Below are positions 4,899 through 52,045 of a stretch of 64,000 nucleotides of DNA, one piece after another (the stretch's first letter is position 1; each line of letters starts with the position of its first letter). Source of the DNA: an uncultured Bacilli bacterium. Lineage in GTDB: Bacteria > Bacillota_I > Bacilli_A > RF39 > UBA660. The DNA lies in assembly GCA_947632115.1 (NCBI GenBank), contig CANROB010000007.1, positions 67 to 64,066 on the forward strand. The letters are read 5' to 3'. The position numbers and the translations under genes are program-made. The notes below the pieces were generated by a model that had not been told where the DNA came from, made no database searches, and saw only the letters and a list, made by a program, of their open reading frames with translations.

Positions 4899-5804
4899 CT
4901 ATAAGATATCAGAGAAATAGTTATGTGTTCCATCTCCACTATAATAGAAAACATTTCCTTCCACATTTCGAACACCTGCTAAGGCGTCATTCACAGCCTC
5001 TGTTACTTGCGCTAATTTCTCTTGTCCCTCATTGGTTTGATAAAACTTACCACCCTCAACGTAACCAAGATAACTTCTGCCCCAAGGAAAATAACCTTTT
5101 TCTAAAACGCCACGAACAGAAGTGCCATAACTACCACCTTGTTCTAGACGATTTAAAATGGTACTAGCAACCGCTAACATGTCATCTTTGTCATTGGCTG
5201 ATTCGCCTGCTACTTGAGCAATCATAAGGCGATAGTCACTTTCTGAAATGGTTCCTGGTTGCATGGCATATTGATTATCAGGAACAATTTGATAAGTTTG
5301 ATTATTCGTCGTAAGTAAACCGGCCGTATTTTTCATAGAACCACTAGCTTGTGATTTGGTGTGAAGTACTCCTTTATATCCATGTACTGTTTTTGTTGGC
5401 TCTATCATCTCGGCATTATAAAATGTTTCTGTATTTTCTTGCAAAACAGGTTCTGATGAAACAGGTTCTACTTCTTGCTCCAAAGCCTCCTCTTCAACGT
5501 TATTTTGTGGGATAACTAATTCCTGACCTGGAAAAATTTTGTTTTGATCTAAACCAATTGTCTCTTTATTCGCATTATAAAGATCATCTACTTTAACCCC
5601 ATATTTTTGAGCAATGGAAGATAAACTTTCCCCATTTTGAATCACATGTCTTACTTCTTTTACTTCTACCTCATAATCTTCAAATGTCTCAATATCCTCT
5701 TGCACGCCCATAGGACCGCTATGGTCTATCGTATATTTCCCTTGAGATATTTGATTTCCTAAACTGGTAGATGAATAATTATCAACTTGACTTGGTAATT
5801 GCAT
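4899..5804 (-). CDS. LysM-domain cell wall hydrolase (SleB/CwlJ-type hydrolase_2 domain)
   Basis: LysM repeat (HVIQNGESLSSIAQKYGVKVDDLYNANK...GQELVIP). The C-terminal segment AQVAGESANDKDDMLAVASTILNR is typical of SleB-like hydrolases. Confidence 0.75.
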   Translation of the reverse strand: MQLPSQVDNYSSTSLGNQISQGKYTIDHSGPMGVQEDIETFEDYEVEVKEVRHVIQNGESLSSIAQKYGVKVDDLYNANKETIGLDQNKIFPGQELVIPQNNVEEEALEQEVEPVSSEPVLQENTETFYNAEMIEPTKTVHGYKGVLHTKSQASGSMKNTAGLLTTNNQTYQIVPDNQYAMQPGTISESDYRLMIAQVAGESANDKDDMLAVASTILNRLEQGGSYGTSVRGVLEKGYFPWGRSYLGYVEGGKFYQTNEGQEKLAQVTEAVNDALAGVRNVEGNVFYYSGDGTHNYFSDIL

Positions 5805-33657: not shown

Positions 33658-33733
33658 GTCTCCTTAGCTCAGTTGGTAGAGCAACAGACTCTTAATCTGT
33701 GGGTCTAGGGTTCGAGCCCCTAAGGGGACACCA
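33658..33733 (+). tRNA. tRNA-Lys (anticodon CUU), CCA encoded
   Basis: Hand-folded cloverleaf. Acceptor stem GTCTCCT/AGGGGAC, D-arm GCTC/GAGC, anticodon stem ACAGA/TCTGT with loop CTCTTAA, T-arm TAGGG-TTCGAGC-CCCTA. Confidence 0.9.
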
Positions 33734-33747
33734 GTTTTGATAAGAAA

Positions 33748-33769
33748 GCCTTGTAATACAAGGTTTTTT
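33748..33769 (+). terminator. intrinsic terminator after tRNA-Lys
   Basis: CCTTG-TAATA-CAAGG hairpin followed by TTTTT. Confidence 0.7.
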
Positions 33770-33793
33770 ATTTTCAAAAAAAGATAGAAAATT

Positions 33794-34441
33794 CTATCTT
33801 TTTTTTGGAAATCCATTTAATCCTTTATCTTTCATAATCTTTGGATAATCTTTATACGAATAATCTCTATCACAGTCTACTCCAGCAATAGTTCTTGCTT
33901 TTCCACCAGAAAATTGCCACATCCCGTAAGTTAGACCTGTTGGACGAAATCGTTCCCAATAAGCTACCCATTTATCATAGGCTCTTAGTCTTCTTAATTC
34001 CATATAATGAAAGAACCAATTTAAAGAAGCATAAATGATAACATAATAGCCTTTTTCTTCAAGGTATTCTGCAAATCCTAAAATAGCATCAGTTACTCTT
34101 CTTCTTCCTGCTTTTCTTTGATAAATATTATCTTCTACATCCATCGCAATTGGGTATTCAAAGGTTTTATCTTTAAGACAGTGTTCATATAAGAATTCTG
34201 CTTCCTCTCTTCCTTCTTCATAAGTAGTAGCTCTAGAGTACCAATAAGCTCCGACATTGATTTTAGCTTCTTTCGCATGGCGATAATTTTCTTCAAACCG
34301 AGGATCTACTGTTTTAGAAATTCCATTTCTACGATCCGTAAAACCTGCTCGAATCATGGCAAAAGTAACGTCATCTTTTTTCGCTTTTTTAAAAGAAAAA
34401 TCTCCTTGGAAAGAAGAAATGTCTATACCAAATTTTTTCAT
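33794..34441 (-). CDS. glycoside hydrolase family 25 muramidase (lysozyme)
   Basis: MKKFGIDISSFQGDFSF...AMIRAGF...IAMDVED motifs. Start trimmed to the ATG with an AAAGGAGG RBS. Confidence 0.85.
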   Translation of the reverse strand: MKKFGIDISSFQGDFSFKKAKKDDVTFAMIRAGFTDRRNGISKTVDPRFEENYRHAKEAKINVGAYWYSRATTYEEGREEAEFLYEHCLKDKTFEYPIAMDVEDNIYQRKAGRRRVTDAILGFAEYLEEKGYYVIIYASLNWFFHYMELRRLRAYDKWVAYWERFRPTGLTYGMWQFSGGKARTIAGVDCDRDYSYKDYPKIMKDKGLNGFPKKR

Positions 34442-34500
34442 GTTACCTCCTTTCTCTATATGGTATTCCATCAAAAAAGAAAGGAAAGTTTTATCACACA

Positions 34501-34563
34501 AAAGGCAAAATAAAAACCCTTTAAAATAAAGGGCTTATCACTAACTTAGTGACCCGTATGGGA
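34501..34563 (-). repeat. 63-bp triple-hairpin terminator module, copy 1
   Basis: 61/63 identical to 35415-35477. On the minus strand it reads CCCATACGGG, TCACTAAGTTAGTGA, then AAGCCCTTTATTTTAAAGGGTTTTTATTTT. Confidence 0.8.
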
Positions 34564-34620
34564 TAAGAAATATTATTAAAATTGTTTACTTGGTGAATCA
34601 TTAGTAATCAGGCTGAGTTC

Positions 34621-35004
34621 TCAGTTGATAACGTATTTATTGTATGCAGCTTTTGTCTTTTTATTTTCATATTTTTTATCTGGTATTGGAAACACAGTTT
34701 TTATCTTTAATTCATTTGAGTTTTCTACTTTAACACGAACAGTAATATTATTATGAATCTTTTTATAATACTCTAATGAATTATTCTTTTCGTTATATAA
34801 GACAAAATCACACTCATTTATAATATAATCTAGGTTTTTCATGATAAAAGCAAACTCTTTAGGATTGCTAAAATCACCATAATGCCTATTATAACAGTGC
34901 TTTCTGTCATTTTCATATATAACAATCTCTTTGCCAGTTAACTCTGGTCTTTTGCACTCATTAGCCATATCAGATGTCACTTTAGCAATTCGCTCTTTAT
35001 TCAT
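34621..35004 (-). CDS. small PBECR-like (barnase/EndoU/colicin-E5/RelE-fold) putative nuclease, 127 aa
   Basis: AGGTGA RBS. The pattern KEIVIYENDRKHCYNRHYGDF...LDYIINECDFVLYN...SLEYYKK...VRVKV resembles standalone phage PBECR-domain proteins as remembered; not verified by search. Confidence 0.5.
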   Translation of the reverse strand: MNKERIAKVTSDMANECKRPELTGKEIVIYENDRKHCYNRHYGDFSNPKEFAFIMKNLDYIINECDFVLYNEKNNSLEYYKKIHNNITVRVKVENSNELKIKTVFPIPDKKYENKKTKAAYNKYVIN

Positions 35005-35026
35005 TCAATTCACCTAGTTTCCTACA

Positions 35027-35301
35027 AAAAAAATCCATACTCCGAAGAGTATGGAAGTTGAGACATTAGGCTAATGCACCACTCTAGCATCTCATCAGAC
35101 TTTACATCCTACACTTAAGAAATTGGCTATAGCCAATATCCGCGATAGTTAGTGACTTTCTACCTCTAATATCTCTTCATTAAAATAACAAGAAAACGAG
35201 AAGATATATGTCGAATCTCTATTCTTGTAATTACAATTTATCACATAATCGGAGCTTTTGCAAATTTAAACTTATTTAACCAATACCCCTGTGACAAATT
35301 T
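35027..35301 (-). ncRNA. ~275-nt non-coding structured leader/RNA L1, ending in an intrinsic terminator
   Basis: Lies downstream of a consensus promoter and has no ORF longer than 22 codons. It contains multiple helices, including the 16-nt palindrome ATTGGCTATAGCCAAT at 35122-35137. The terminator CCATACTC-TTCG-GAGTATGG plus U8 is at 35027-35054. Confidence 0.55.
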
Positions 35302-35307
35302 CCGTAT

Positions 35308-35336
35308 AGTATAGCAGTAAAAAATGTTTATGTCAA
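35308..35336 (-). promoter_or_regulatory. consensus sigma-A promoter P1
   Basis: Minus strand TTGACA-17-TATACT. Confidence 0.7.
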
Positions 35337-35414
35337 GTCAAAAAAAGTATAGTCATAAGCATTATAAAAATAGAAATAATTAGAAATTAAGAGGTAAATA
35401 GTCGGTAAAATGAA

Positions 35415-35477
35415 AAAGGCAAAATAAAAACCCTTTAAAATAAAGGGCTTATCACTAACTTGGTGACCCGTACGGGA
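35415..35477 (-). repeat. 63-bp triple-hairpin terminator module, copy 2
   Basis: 61/63 identical to 34501-34563. Confidence 0.8.
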
Positions 35478-35609
35478 ATGATTTGACAGAATTATTGCAA
35501 CACATTTATTCATTAATACCAATAAAAACAAGGAAAATTATATTATAAAAATTATTAAAAATTTATTGTTTTTAGTTTTTTAGTACCTAAATAGTACCTA
35601 AAATTTAAT

Positions 35610-35939
35610 ATGAAATCAAAAAGAAGTAAAGCTACAAATATTTCAAAATCTGTAAAAGATAAAGTATGGGAAAGAGACAATCATAGATGTGTTGTCTGTG
35701 GAAATAGTTATAATGTTATGCCCAATGCACACATCTTATCTCGTGCAAAAGGCGGACTAGGAATTGAAACTAATATTGTAACAATGTGTACCAATCTAAC
35801 CCCAAACAAATGCCATGAAAAATATGATAATGGAACGAAGGAACAACACGATGCCATTTTTAAAATTATAGCGAAGTATATGAAATCCGTCTATGGCAAT
35901 GACTGGAATATTGATGATCAGAGATATCGTAAATTATAA
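35610..35939 (+). CDS. HNH endonuclease (109 aa)
   Basis: WERDNHRCVVCG...NAHILSRAKGG...N..TMC...CHEKYD, an HNH/zinc-finger pattern. No Shine-Dalgarno is visible, and a tandem TAGTACCTAAA x2 lies just upstream. Confidence 0.7.
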   Translation: MKSKRSKATNISKSVKDKVWERDNHRCVVCGNSYNVMPNAHILSRAKGGLGIETNIVTMCTNLTPNKCHEKYDNGTKEQHDAIFKIIAKYMKSVYGNDWNIDDQRYRKL

Positions 35940-35947
35940 AAGACAAG

Positions 35948-36376
35948 TTAATCAACTTGTCTTTTTTTATAACCATATTTTTTTAATGACTGTTTTTTTA
36001 TTGTTTCTTCCTCATTTAGTTTTCTATTTCTTATTTTTACCTCGCTTACCGGATATATACTAGCTACATATAATTCCCTTTTTCCAGTGTTTTGAACTAC
36101 CACACAAACATTTTCTAGTAATTTTTTGTAATACTCAATTCCATGCTTTTCTACATTATAATATACATAATCTGGTGCATTGATAACATCAACAACATGA
36201 TCAATTGTATAATTAAAACTATCAACAGATAAAAACTGTTTAGCATGAGGTGCTATATGGATGTATAAATCTAAAGATTGAACAATCTCCTTTCCTCGGC
36301 ACTCATCTAAAAACCATTTTTTGATGATATCATCATTAACATAACCAATTTTTTTACAAACTCTATTTTTGGGCAT
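35948..36376 (-). CDS. small PBECR-like putative nuclease, 143 aa (paralog-like of 34621-35004)
   Basis: AGGTGA RBS. The pattern IGYVNDDIIKK...KEIVQSLDLYIHIAPHAKQF...VINAPDYVYYN...GIEYYKK...VVVQ has the same layout as the 127-aa protein. Confidence 0.5.
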   Translation of the reverse strand: MPKNRVCKKIGYVNDDIIKKWFLDECRGKEIVQSLDLYIHIAPHAKQFLSVDSFNYTIDHVVDVINAPDYVYYNVEKHGIEYYKKLLENVCVVVQNTGKRELYVASIYPVSEVKIRNRKLNEEETIKKQSLKKYGYKKRQVD

Positions 36377-36394
36377 ATGCATCACCTACAATAT

Positions 36395-36670
36395 AACAAA
36401 ACAGCCCATGCCAAACGGCACAGGCTGGAGTAATCAAGGCAGGGCTCCCAAATTCCTACATACCTACTTTCGACAAATGTCTACTCAAACTCTTTCGAGC
36501 GTACTGGGCGAAGACTTTCCAGTTTCTTAATTACTCATTACAATAATAGCAATGTATATACACGAATGTTGTCGTACATTGGCACCAATGCTATTGTAAT
36601 TACAATTTATCACATAATTGGAGTTTTTGCAAATCTAAACTTATTTAACCAATCCCCCTGTGACAAATTT
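36395..36670 (-). ncRNA. ~275-nt non-coding structured leader/RNA L2, ending in an intrinsic terminator
   Basis: No ORF longer than 13 codons. The 5' ~76 nt are about 93% identical to L1. An 11-bp helix pairs 36589-36599 with 36538-36551. The terminator hairpin CAGCCTGTGCC-GTTT-GGCATGGGCTG plus UUUUGUU is at 36395-36427. Confidence 0.55.
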
Positions 36671-36676
36671 CTGTAT

Positions 36677-36705
36677 AGTATAGCAGTATTATATTTATTT
36701 GTCAA
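36677..36705 (-). promoter_or_regulatory. consensus sigma-A promoter P2
   Basis: Minus strand TTGACA-17-TATACT, directly after the endolysin terminator hairpin (GGCATAGC/GCTATGCC plus a T-run). Confidence 0.7.
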
Positions 36706-36732
36706 CACAAAAAAAGAGGCATAGCAATTAAG

Positions 36733-37542
36733 CTATGCCTTTTTTAATTTTCCTTGCTTCAATAAATTTAACATTTGAGTGTTTTGAGATGCAGACCCTT
36801 TATAACCAGTAATTCCATTCTTGTTAGCTATTTTTAATCGATTAGTAAATGAACTGTCTACTTTTATACTCTTCAATCCATCTACAATGGAGTTCCCTTT
36901 GTAACTACACTTTGGATAATAACTCGTTGTTTCGACAGGTGTAGAGGTTGTTGGTTTAGGTTCTTCTTTTACTTCTTCCGTTGGTAAGTCTTTGAATTTT
37001 AATCCTTTACTTTGCTTAATTTTAGTAATAGATTTATCGATAAAAAACACTTCTTCTGGTGCGATTTGATTATTGCTAATAACCCATGCGCCTTTCGAAT
37101 TTTTCTTCCATCCGTTATTACCTAATTTGCTAAATTCGCACGCTGCACATTCGATATGAAAATGGTATCCTTTAGGAGCTCCATCGTTCCCCTCTTTGAA
37201 CATGACAGTTCCCTGCTTTACAGCTTGTCCAACTTTGTACTTTTTTAAATCGGCATCAACTACATGAAGCACCATCACTGTCACAAAAGATTCTTTTCCG
37301 TTGGCAAGTTTTACCTTGTCTTTAGATTGTAACCATACTGAATTAGTGCCTGCTGTATAAAATCTCTTAATTATACAATCAAAGGGTGCTAAGAACTCAC
37401 TTTTTGACGATAAAGACTCACAGATGTCGTCGATTGGATAAGATTTAGGACTACCATTATAATAATCTGCATGAGAGCCGCTCTTTACAGCGTAACCCTG
37501 CGTCAAATTCATAAATTTACTTGGATATTTTGCAGATTGCAT
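36733..37542 (-). CDS. phage endolysin, M23/LytM-like peptidase domain plus C-terminal cell-wall-binding-like domain
   Basis: Located next to the holin. The layout parallels lysostaphin-type M23 domains (..VMVLHV..KVGQAVKQGTVMFKEGNDGAPKGYHFHIE). The C-terminal ~60 aa module (DGLKSIKVDSSF...NTQMLNLLKQGKLKKA) is common at the ends of phage lysins. Confidence 0.6.
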   Translation of the reverse strand: MQSAKYPSKFMNLTQGYAVKSGSHADYYNGSPKSYPIDDICESLSSKSEFLAPFDCIIKRFYTAGTNSVWLQSKDKVKLANGKESFVTVMVLHVVDADLKKYKVGQAVKQGTVMFKEGNDGAPKGYHFHIECAACEFSKLGNNGWKKNSKGAWVISNNQIAPEEVFFIDKSITKIKQSKGLKFKDLPTEEVKEEPKPTTSTPVETTSYYPKCSYKGNSIVDGLKSIKVDSSFTNRLKIANKNGITGYKGSASQNTQMLNLLKQGKLKKA

Positions 37543-51968: not shown

Positions 51969-52045
51969 TGGTCTCGGTAACAGGATTTGAACCTGCACAA
52001 TCTAGTTCCCAAAACTAGTGCACTACCAAATTATGCTATACCGAG
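51969..52045 (-). tRNA. phage-encoded tRNA-Pro (anticodon UGG), CCA encoded
   Basis: Hand-folded cloverleaf. Acceptor stem CTCGGTA/TACCGAG, anticodon stem CTAGT/ACTAG with loop TTTGGGA (G37), T-arm GCAGG-TTCAAAT-CCTGT, discriminator A plus CCA. Confidence 0.85.

Follow-up and report, generated by a model that had tools for sequence, protein, structure and literature searches.

In the window (the whole stretch of DNA that was analysed, 64,000 nucleotides from an uncultured Bacilli bacterium), there is a prophage that carries two cassettes on the minus strand, each comprising a promoter, a structured RNA of about 275 nt, an intrinsic terminator, a ribosome-binding site (RBS) and a small open reading frame (ORF). 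Judged by sequence comparison, the 3′ part of each RNA (about 105–110 nt) belongs, in divergent and expanded form, to the skipping-rope family (Rfam RF02924), and each ORF encodes a PBECR3 protein, for which a BECR/RelE-like RNase fold is predicted. The order of promoter, RNA, terminator and RNase suggests that the RNA is the partner of the enzyme; by analogy with characterised RNA–toxin loci, it probably holds its RNase in check. The best reading, to which we assign a probability of about 0.4, is a type III-like pair of an RNA antidote or immunity factor and an RNase toxin, with orphan copies of the RNA elsewhere.

Anatomy of the two cassettes

The twin architecture of promoter, RNA, terminator and ORF that the initial annotation had described is present in both units (Table 1). 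That annotation had them lying between the endolysin and the edge of the prophage; the cassettes are actually flanked by two endolysin-type genes. The units have in common a 5′ block of 123 nt (89% identity), which covers the promoter and the first ~95 nt, and they diverge afterwards. Both near-consensus promoters were recovered by a promoter scan. The second promoter-like element of unit A scores below the threshold of that scan; an element of the same type (TTGnnn-16/17-TGA-TAAATT) is seen again just 5′ of the RNA in other loci.

The hairpins with U-runs that had been noticed ahead of the RBS are terminator hairpins with T-runs in both units. The region contains six terminator-like sites (1.0 expected), and the terminator pairs covary across loci (helix 7 of the B-subtype alignment). 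The terminator lies 3–6 nt from P1, the helix that closes the core of the RNA, and the PBECR3 gene starts 10–25 nt after the terminator; in unit A, the space between the terminator and the ATG fits no promoter. Because this gap is too short for a promoter, PBECR3 can be expressed only by read-through of the terminator, and therefore the RNA greatly outnumbers the enzyme and is also present in cis on every PBECR3 mRNA.

The downstream ORFs had been given as 143 and 127 amino acids: the second length stands, whereas the first is 142 counted from the ATG. The leaders had been said to contain no ORF longer than 22 codons; leader B has a GTG ORF of 31 codons (35149-35244), which has no Shine–Dalgarno sequence and is not conserved, with only 9 codons in frame in L007.

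Table 1. Features of the two cassettes and their surroundings (window coordinates).
Feature	Position	Strand	Details	Evidence
tRNA-Lys	33658-33733		beyond GH25 gene	
GH25 endolysin-type gene	33794-34441		one flank of cassette pair	
Unit B ORF	34621..35004	-	127 aa, PBECR3 (B clade)	Pfam PF18812
Unit B RBS	35015-35010	-	AGGTGA	
Unit B intrinsic terminator	35034..35055	-	9-bp stem, T8	terminator scan, fold
Unit B skipping-rope-like core	35062..35173	-	B subtype	Rfam RF02924, covariation, model R1
Unit B hairpin P0	35184..35232	-		predicted fold
Unit B 5′ stem-loop domain	35235..35300	-	within the 123-nt block	predicted fold
Unit B second promoter-like element	35263-35258; 35240-35235	-	TTGCAA, 17-nt spacer, TG-A-TAAATT	
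Unit B distal promoter	35308..35336	-	TTGACA-17-TATACT, TG	promoter scan, 11/12 matches
Unit A ORF	35948..36376	-	142 aa from ATG, PBECR3 (A clade)	Pfam PF18812
Unit A RBS	36387-36381	-	AGGTGAT	
Unit A intrinsic terminator	36402..36427	-	11-bp stem + T-run, directly after P1	terminator scan, fold
Unit A skipping-rope-like core	36431..36533	-	A subtype	Rfam RF02924, covariation
Unit A long hairpin P0	36537..36600	-	between 5′ domain and core	predicted fold
Unit A 5′ stem-loop domain	36604..36669	-	AAAUUUGUCACA... paired with ...UGUGAUAAAUU	MFE and centroid fold
Unit A second, weaker promoter-like element	36632-36627; 36609-36604	-	TTGCAA, 17-nt spacer, TG-A-TAAATT	
Unit A distal promoter	36677..36705	-	sigma-70-type, TTGACA-17-TATACT, extended TG	promoter scan, 11/12 matches
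Endolysin-type gene	36733-37542		other flank of cassette pair	

The leader RNA and the skipping-rope family

The leader is a real, conserved, structured RNA. Both full leaders fold better than 200 of 200 shuffled sequences (z = -3.3 and -3.6), and the sequence of hairpin P0 differs between the units. Searches of either leader for tandem repeats and for internal direct repeats found none, in keeping with its earlier description as non-repetitive. The covariation that had been proposed as a test of the leaders is strong across homologous loci, in both subtypes, for a core of five helices closed by P1: in the A type there are double changes in 14 of 33 pairs, and in the B type in 22 of 49 pairs, with 92.7% paired (0/500 shuffles in each case).

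In unit A, the core runs from P1 through GA..-P2 (loop AAAGUCUUCGC), UACG, P3, an inserted J3/4 (UUUGAGUAG) with P4, GAAAGUAGGUAU, P5 (loop ..UGGGAGC) and CC to the 3′ strand of P1. In unit B, the corresponding order is P1 (GAGAUAUUAG/CUAAUGUCUC), GAGG-P2 (loop AAAGUCACUAA), CGCG, P3, an inserted J3/4 (UUAAGUGUAG) with P4, GAUGAGAUG, P5 (loop GAGUGGUGCAU), CC and the 3′ strand of P1. This is the architecture of RF02924, in which P1 surrounds three hairpins with the junctions GAGG / GAAAG loop / CgCa / GAGAUG / CC, plus one inserted hairpin, P4. The order of helices and junctions is the same (P1; GAGG; P2 with a GAAAG... loop; CRCR; P3; a GAGAUG-like junction; P5; CC; the 3′ strand of P1), as is the context: a phage-associated RNA with a Rho-independent terminator on its 3′ side and a protein gene nearby, on either side. 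A neighbouring protein gene, before or after the RNA, has already been reported for the skipping-rope motif (Weinberg et al. 2017, PMC5737381). The window-type cores differ in that 19–44 nt (J3/4 and P4) are inserted between P3 and the GAGAUG junction, and in the sequences of the P2:P5 loops (CACU:GGUG in B and CUUC:GGAG in A, versus the canonical GGC:GCC), which are likely to be in kissing contact. Furthermore, the two additional 5′ domains bring the window RNA to ~275 nt, and it is a terminated leader upstream of the protein gene, whereas the RNA in the examined PBECR3 loci of Streptococcus phages lies downstream and has its own promoter.

In searches of short sequences, RF02924 is the top Rfam match of both cores, aligned along the whole model (1-80), with 33.1 bits for unit A (E 1.9e-6, 171-nt search) and 27.8 bits for unit B (E 7.9e-5, 186-nt search); both scores are below the gathering score of the family (36.7 bits), and canonical members score 60–72 bits. 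Because the scores are under this threshold, scans of the whole window and of 2.4 kb detected neither core. Thus, the Rfam search that had been suggested misses both cores in the whole window and gives sub-threshold matches in the short searches, and what the initial annotation took for a possibly undescribed RNA is a sub-threshold, expanded variant of skipping-rope. A model built from B-type RNAs (R1) scores the unit B core at 159 bits, picks up A-type RNAs (E 1e-9 to 5e-3) and also finds canonical skipping-rope sites, which are 5 of its best 13 matches in 98 kb.

PBECR3 proteins and their linkage to the RNA

The two ORFs had been guessed to be PBECR-like, and both match Pfam PBECR3 (PF18812) well above its gathering cutoff of 30 bits: unit A with 51.4 bits (E 1.2e-13) and unit B with 60.4 bits (E 1.9e-16). 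All 16 homologues of the unit A protein match PF18812, and Pfam matches are limited to PBECR3/PBECR2. The BECR fold has its catalytic histidine in the region of the N-terminal helix (Iyer et al. 2017). In the AF2 model of the 127-aa unit B protein (pLDDT 92), helix 31-44 bears H36 and H41, which, together with K111, are invariant across three PBECR3 clades of ~20–30% identity. The best Foldseek matches of this model are toxins of the RelE superfamily (BrnT, HigB and RelE), with E only ~1e-2 and TM 0.3–0.6. Neither PADLOC nor PHROGs includes PBECR3, and no PADLOC model matched. No conserved protein antitoxin gene was found at the loci, which agrees with the earlier remark that no cognate protein antitoxin ORF is visible.

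A pairing of RNA and protein had been proposed for the window, and a conserved RNA does stand beside the homologous genes. Among the A and B loci gathered from the protein, 22 of 22 distinct loci have the RNA upstream of PBECR3; since the sampled lineages are related, this complete linkage counts as few independent events. Scans that started from the RNA, with A-type and B-type patterns, recovered only PBECR3-linked copies. In PBECR3 loci of the Streptococcus type (S-type) with downstream flank, all seven have a canonical skipping-rope RNA (60–72 bits) directly downstream, with a promoter (TTGACA-17-TATAAT-like) that overlaps the PBECR3 stop codon. Across three clades, no PBECR3 gene examined lies farther than ~100 nt from the RNA; two gene orders occur, and both arrangements (a leader with a terminator, or a downstream RNA with its own promoter) place RNA in excess of protein. 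The RNA subtype tracks the PBECR3 clade, even for the two cassettes of a single prophage.

Canonical skipping-rope RNAs were also collected from viral contigs in IMG/VR. There are 77, for four of which the upstream sequence is too short for an assessment; PBECR3 is adjacent in 32 of the remaining 73 (about 44%), and the fetched locus contains no PBECR3 for the other 41. The genes that precede the RNAs without PBECR3 are diverse: Peptidase_M78/ImmA, tail-fibre, lysin, membrane, NYN, IscB and TnpB. Moreover, near-identical RNA cassettes occur behind either PBECR3 or M78 peptidase genes. Because many copies are without PBECR3, and near-identical cassettes occur with and without it, the RNA functions, or is able to function, apart from PBECR3 as well.

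Precedents and possible roles of the RNA

The likeness to type III toxin–antitoxin loci that the initial annotation had pointed out holds for the layout: as in ToxIN, CptIN and TenpIN, one promoter lies over an RNA gene and an endoRNase gene with a terminator between them, and the RNA is in excess. In those systems, the RNA antitoxin is pseudoknotted, and they are often carried by mobile elements and take part in conflicts with phages. They differ from the cassettes in that the toxin processes an RNA made of tandem repeats and has the ToxN/AbiQ fold and not the BECR fold. The type II systems RelBE, HigBA and BrnTA also have small metal-independent RNases, and the fold predicted for the 127-aa protein is nearest to their toxins, albeit with the weak similarity given above; however, they have an adjacent protein antitoxin. 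[quoted passage not shown] It shares with the cassettes a prophage slot adjoining the lysis module and the order of sigma-A promoter, structured ncRNA, Rho-independent terminator, RBS and read-through gene. The RNA family there is unrelated (two abiF motifs, ~100–130 nt), the protein is Abi_2/AbiD/F and Cas13-related, as opposed to BECR/RelE-like, and the function has been demonstrated, whereas for the PBECR3 cassettes we infer RNA–protein binding, neutralisation, toxicity and the biological role. That a type III-like RNA antitoxin can go with a toxin other than a ToxN-type RNase is seen in AvcID, whose sRNA antitoxin, AvcI, pairs with a dCMP/dCTP deaminase (PMC10511110); its RNA is unrelated to that of the cassettes.

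In the proposed model, each unit would be a two-gene RNA–protein module, in which one or two sigma-A-type promoters drive the ~275-nt sRNA, and PBECR3 would be a metal-independent BECR/RelE-like endoRNase with a conserved pair of histidines. The RNA would be its trans-acting cognate partner and would most likely bind and neutralise the RNase, serving as antidote or immunity factor much as in type III toxin–antitoxin or abortive-infection/exclusion modules. The two pairs, A and B, may represent two orthogonal specificities carried as prophage morons, and skipping-rope RNAs without PBECR3 in other phages may be orphan immunity copies.

A trans-acting partner is favoured because the Streptococcus RNA lies downstream with its own promoter and the window-type leaders have no antiterminator. 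The latter bears on the main alternative of the initial annotation, a riboswitch or attenuator leader (protein- or tRNA-dependent, including autoregulation by PBECR3 through its own leader) that gates read-through into PBECR3. All A and B loci have the features expected of such a leader: an RNA in the 5′ UTR with an aptamer-like core closed by P1, the terminator 3–6 nt past P1 and then the RBS. Nevertheless, a switchable expression platform is missing: in folds cut at the terminator loop, the 5′ half of the terminator is unpaired in about 19 of 21 sequences and has no conserved partner, and there is no conserved alternative pairing of the core with the terminator. Nor are the homologous RNAs consistently in the 5′ UTR of a regulated gene, being downstream of the gene in the S-type loci or beside unrelated genes elsewhere; subtypes A and B do not conserve the same unpaired nucleotides, as a shared small-molecule aptamer would be expected to; and the family was judged an improbable riboswitch by Weinberg et al. 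(PMC5737381). A cis-regulatory role is thus disfavoured, and we regard it as very unlikely.

Linkage and co-divergence would be the same if the RNA were an obligate partner of PBECR3 and not an inhibitor, and activating, scaffolding or substrate roles fit the linkage as well as inhibition does. As scaffold, activator, specificity subunit, or substrate processed into a mature sRNA, it would be consistent with the suggestion of Iyer et al. that RNA binding is how some PBECR domains work, and with the conserved purine-rich junctions and kissing loops, which suggest a precise three-dimensional shape for specific recognition. Yet over half of the canonical RNAs are without PBECR3, which an antidote or immunity role explains more readily than does a cofactor dependent on its enzyme; the variable parts, P3 and P4, are self-paired hairpins and offer no single-stranded guide; and RNA in excess is a design typical of antidotes. 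We consider such a role unlikely. The copies without PBECR3, behind very diverse genes, would be explained if the RNA were a stand-alone phage moron (for example, a decoy against defence systems, or a regulator with host or phage targets) that shares the lysis–att hot spot with PBECR3 and has no direct interaction with it, the window terminator merely insulating the next gene; the exchange of PBECR3 and M78 genes in front of the same cassette, and the RNAs' own promoters and terminators, are in accord with this. Against such independence are the proximity of the RNA to every PBECR3 gene examined, the co-divergence of RNA and protein within one prophage, and an A/B-locus protein that is expressible only through the RNA gene, and we think it improbable. 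Extending the antidote reading to the whole family is more speculative, and we do so with considerable doubt: skipping-rope-type RNAs would be immunity factors (antitoxins) for PBECR3 BECR-fold RNases and a new class of RNA antitoxin, with a single compact kissing-loop fold instead of tandem repeats; each of the subtypes A, B and S would have its own cognate protein, orthogonal to the others, with two such pairs in this prophage; and the orphans would act on their own, as immunity genes that protect against PBECR nucleases delivered by competing phages.

To our knowledge, skipping-rope, presented in 2017 among the “sophisticated” orphan RNAs of bacteria, still lacks a function, and we know of no regulator or immunity factor for the PBECR nucleases, which are widespread effectors in phage conflicts. 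Here, three divergent PBECR3 clades are tied to three co-diverging skipping-rope subtypes, and the position of the RNA on either side of the gene, always in excess, leads to a concrete hypothesis, in which the RNA is antidote to, or partner of, a BECR RNase. The skipping-rope family is extended to expanded variants beneath the Rfam threshold, and one prophage provides a natural pair of putatively orthogonal RNA–protein modules. If the hypothesis is true, RNA-antitoxin biology would reach the RelE/BECR fold, past toxins of the ToxN and AbiF types.

Twin cassettes in one prophage

The initial annotation described two minus-strand units of the same architecture, A and B, each with a promoter, an RNA leader of about 275 nt, a terminator, a ribosome-binding site (RBS) and a small open reading frame (ORF); promoter and terminator scans agree with this for both units, and six terminator-like sites were found by scanning in this region, against 1.0 expected. 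The dense helices noticed in the leaders are borne out by folding, as both leaders fold better than 200 of 200 dinucleotide shuffles (z = -3.3 and -3.6). Two details need correction. Leader B does contain an ORF of more than 22 codons (31 codons from GTG, 35149-35244), which has no Shine-Dalgarno sequence and was rejected as a micro-ORF because it is not conserved. The cassettes lie not between the endolysin and the prophage edge but between two endolysin-type genes, with a tRNA-Lys gene, probably the attachment site, beyond them. The phage region itself contains a gene for tRNA-Pro(tgg) (51969-52045, minus strand).

A 123-nt block, made up of the promoter plus the initial ~95 nt of the RNA, is 89% identical in the two units, which diverge past it. 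The block is alike in both units although their cores (the 3′ ~105-110 nt of each leader, closed by helix P1) have diverged, which could be due to gene conversion or to shared regulation. A second promoter-like element within the block (TTGCAA-17-TG-A-TAAATT) recurs just 5′ of the RNA in other loci. Unit B is flanked by a 64-nt direct repeat, 97% identical (34500-34563 and 35414-35477), and in both copies the minus strand has a hairpin resembling a terminator (34514-34536 and 35428-35450); the repeat looks like the scar of insertion of cassette B, or of its duplication, by recombination. Convergent HNH/DUF968-like ORFs such as that between the units also lie 3′ of PBECR3 genes in six homologous loci (L021, L023, L025, L035, L040 and L041), often adjoining an integrase. 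As a conserved protein partner this ORF was rejected, as it recurs in several loci but not all, and is absent for unit B.

Coordinates of the two cassettes and of their neighbours in the window
Feature	Position	Strand	Evidence or remark
Units A and B, same anatomy	34441-36732	minus	
Endolysin-type gene (M23/LysM-like)	36733-37542	minus	brackets cassettes on one side
123-nt block, unit A	36594-36716		forms 5′ stem-loop
Promoter TTGACA-17-TATACT, unit A	36705-36677	minus	promoter scan, 11/12 matches, with TG
Core, unit A	36431-36533	minus	RF02924 top match, full model, 33.1 bits, E 1.9e-6 (~180-nt search); below gathering score 36.7
Terminator hairpin and T-run, unit A	36427-36402	minus	scan
PBECR3 ORF, unit A	35948-36376	minus	142 aa counted from ATG
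HNH endonuclease ORF between units	35610-35939	plus	phrog_7370, E 3e-21; convergent with PBECR3 ORF of unit A
123-nt block, unit B	35225-35347		forms 5′ stem-loop
Promoter TTGACA-17-TATACT, unit B	35336-35308	minus	promoter scan, 11/12 matches, with TG
Core, unit B	35062-35173	minus	RF02924 top match, full model, 27.8 bits, E 7.9e-5 (~180-nt search); below gathering score 36.7
Terminator hairpin and T-run, unit B	35055-35034	minus	scan
PBECR3 ORF, unit B	34621-35004	minus	127 aa
Endolysin-type gene (GH25 muramidase)	33794-34441	minus	brackets cassettes on other side
tRNA-Lys(ctt)	33658-33733	plus	just beyond the endolysin-bracketed cassettes

Identity of the proteins and of the RNAs

Both ORFs encode members of PBECR3 (Pfam PF18812, a BECR/RelE-like RNase fold): they score 51.4 bits (unit A) and 60.4 bits (unit B) against a cutoff of 30, and the PBECR likeness seen in the initial annotation was therefore right. 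The two proteins are 28% identical, and their homologue clusters (16 for A, 27 for B) all belong to PF18812 and come mainly from metagenome-assembled genomes of uncultured Bacilli from rabbit and human gut. Searches of the PADLOC and PHROG families gave no match to either protein, and among GenBank phages nothing matched the DNA or the B protein. The AlphaFold2 model of the 127-aa protein (pLDDT 92) has its best matches in the PDB among RelE-superfamily toxins (a Salmonella toxin-antitoxin complex, BrnT, HigB and RelE), all weak (E ≥ 9e-3). Residues H36, H41 and K111 are invariant in three clades whose mutual identity is just ~20-30%, and the two histidines fit the His-based active site proposed for PBECR domains by Iyer et al. 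(PMC5512222).

The lead to the identity of the RNA was a weak tblastn match between protein A and phage phiJH1301-1 of Streptococcus suis. The gene concerned, “spbA”, encodes PBECR3 (E 8e-19) and starts 60 nt past the lysin gene, thus leaving no room for a leader. Directly 3′ of spbA lies a structure closed by P1 that shares the junction motifs of the window RNAs, and a terminator follows it. Rfam identifies this element, and those of three further such loci, as skipping-rope RNA (RF02924; 60-72 bits). Weinberg et al. (PMC5737381) described this motif as highly conserved and as having a terminator at its 3′ end; a literature search found no later functional study of it. These Streptococcus-phage loci, with canonical skipping-rope RNA 3′ of the gene, are termed S type.

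Rfam searches of the whole window at the gathering threshold, and of 2.4 kb at E ≤ 10, gave no match in the leaders; the speed filters hid sub-threshold skipping-rope matches, which were recovered only with query stretches of ~180 nt. Scaled to the whole window, the E-values would be about 7e-4 (unit A) and 0.03 (unit B). In the reverse direction, a covariance model built from B-type RNAs matches the canonical skipping-rope site in one locus (L043, E 7e-4) and, in 98 kb of S-type loci, 5 of 13 best matches fall exactly on the skipping-rope RNA. These mutual matches identify the leaders as divergent members of the skipping-rope family to which two 5′ domains have been added. They count as an expanded variant, since they score below the curated Rfam threshold and carry, besides the 5′ domains, an insertion of 19-44 nt (J3/4 and hairpin P4), which in both cores separates P3 from the GAGAUG junction. 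Thus, the RNA of the RNA-protein pair that had been put forward as possibly undescribed belongs to a known family, although below its gathering score; the window RNAs are evidently related to skipping-rope RNAs and would work like them.

Conserved structure and linkage to PBECR3

DNA around the PBECR3 homologues yielded 13 distinct B and 9 distinct A RNA sequences. The gap from endolysin to PBECR3 is 350-600 nt in every A/B locus, its last ~170 nt are far better conserved than the PBECR3 protein, and each of the two RNA subtypes is invariably found 5′ of its own PBECR3 clade. Both subtypes have closing helix P1, then P2 (its loop starts (G)AAAG), the junction YRCG, P3 as a variable hairpin, J3/4, which is conserved (UUAAGUGUAG in B, YYGAGUAG in A), P4, likewise a variable hairpin, a J4/5 rich in purines, a P5 with conserved loop, CC, and the 3′ strand of P1. 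An intrinsic terminator follows 3-6 nt past P1, with the RBS and ATG another 10-25 nt on. The covariation proposed as a check is present: in the B alignment (92.7% of cells paired), double-sided changes occur in 22 of 49 pairs, equalled in 0 of 500 shuffles and compared with 3-7 in slid controls, and in the A alignment in 14 of 33 pairs (0/500 shuffles). The B model detects A-type RNAs (E 1e-9 to 5e-3). It also gives a weak, probably spurious match (18.7 bits, E 0.029) at 33670-33812 on the plus strand of the window, spanning tRNA-Lys and the next hairpin.

The P2 and P5 loops are complementary in every subtype, with different bases (S, GGC:GCC; B, CACU:GGUG; locus L005, CAUC:GAUG; A, CUUC:GGAG; the group of locus L021, UCUUCU:GGGAGA), and cognate pairings outscore non-cognate ones. 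The two loops may thus meet in a tertiary contact of the kissing-loop type. The alternative, in which the P2 loop forms a pseudoknot with J3/4, is as compatible with the A/B RNAs as the kissing loop is, but L005 and the S type speak for the latter.

Starting from the protein, the RNA lies upstream in 22/22 distinct A/B loci, and canonical RNA lies downstream in all seven S-type loci having downstream flank. Starting from the RNA, A-type and B-type patterns match only PBECR3-linked copies. The canonical pattern matched 77 viral contigs (IMG/VR). In 32 of them, PBECR3 is the immediate upstream neighbour and on the same strand; the fetched loci of the other 45 contain no PBECR3, four of these having too little upstream sequence to judge. 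Such orphan RNAs lie 3′ of Peptidase_M78/ImmA genes in 13 loci, with a gap of 2 nt (named loci: L061, L064, L074, L080, L081, L087, L099, L103, L108 and L113); others follow tail-fibre, lysin, membrane, NYN, IscB (RRXRR+HNH; directly 5′ in L101, L120, L121, L128 and L131) or TnpB genes (OrfB_IS605; L077 and L110), and a serine recombinase is often found 3′ of orphan RNAs. RNA cassettes that are nearly identical to one another are found after PBECR3 genes in some loci and after M78 genes in others. PBECR3 in these clades is always accompanied by the RNA, and the RNA is often without PBECR3; thus, the dependence is asymmetric.

Two contigs bear further features. In L082, an NYN-domain (PIN-like RNase) gene is immediately upstream of the orphan RNA at 5253-5379, which hints that skipping-rope RNAs may pair with other RNase families. 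In L064, there is a sub-threshold match to BsrG (RF01412, a type I toxin RNA; 35 bits, E 7e-5) at 2186-2315 on the plus strand, ~650 nt upstream of the skipping-rope RNA.

Switch or trans-acting partner

From the arrangement of promoters and terminators, the RNase gene in A/B loci should be expressible only via read-through of the RNA terminator. In S loci, the RNA has a consensus promoter (TTGACA-17-TATAAT-like) overlapping the PBECR3 stop codon, and for the PBECR3 gene ahead the sole promoter element is a weak extended -10. Both designs are predicted to give RNA in excess, with each PBECR3 mRNA carrying the RNA. The initial annotation saw no cognate protein antitoxin, and none is conserved among the fetched homologous loci, so the module is not of the type II RelBE-like kind. 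Its suggested likeness to type III toxin-antitoxin loci holds for the layout, which is all that the module has in common with ToxIN; neither leader contains tandem repeats (as had been noted) and the protein does not have the ToxN fold, and the module is therefore not of the ToxIN type. The closest functional precedent, by layout, is RCd22-AbiF of the Clostridioides difficile phi027 prophage (PMC12373285). [quoted passage not shown]

A leader acting in cis, as riboswitch or attenuator, was the main alternative at the outset and is improbable. When leaders were folded only as far as the terminator loop, the 5′ half of the terminator was unpaired in nearly all sequences, and core and terminator are therefore independent modules; furthermore, S-type loci have the opposite gene order, and the conserved unpaired nucleotides differ among subtypes. 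The RNA as a cofactor or substrate of the RNase is somewhat less unlikely than a cis switch, and the same standing is given to an independent small RNA that merely shares a hot spot with PBECR3. The predicted excess of RNA, the lack of a protein antitoxin, the RCd22-AbiF precedent and the improbability of a cis switch favour a type III-like antidote. Preferred tentatively, at a probability of about 0.42, this reading holds that the skipping-rope-type RNA would be an antidote or immunity factor for the BECR RNase, that A and B would be two orthogonal RNA-protein pairs, and that orphan RNAs would be stand-alone immunity copies, with binding, toxicity and neutralisation all presumed.

Three specific motifs were rejected individually. 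Pairing of J3/4 (GUGUAGG) with the 5′ half of the terminator, as an antiterminator, is plausible by eye, but truncated folds form it only in locus L008. A T-box (AGAGA-like motif, UGGU loop) has no RF00230 match, and A-type loops do not conserve the UGG. A hammerhead (suggested by CUGAUGAG and GAAA in B-type RNAs) lacks the required stem II pairing, the motif is absent from the A type, and there is no Rfam match.

When skipping-rope was described by Weinberg in 2017, the protein domain associated with it was reportedly still unnamed. The leader-type arrangement of the RNA and the twin cassettes within one prophage appear to be new, as does the recognition of PBECR3 as the protein linked to skipping-rope, in three co-diverging clades.
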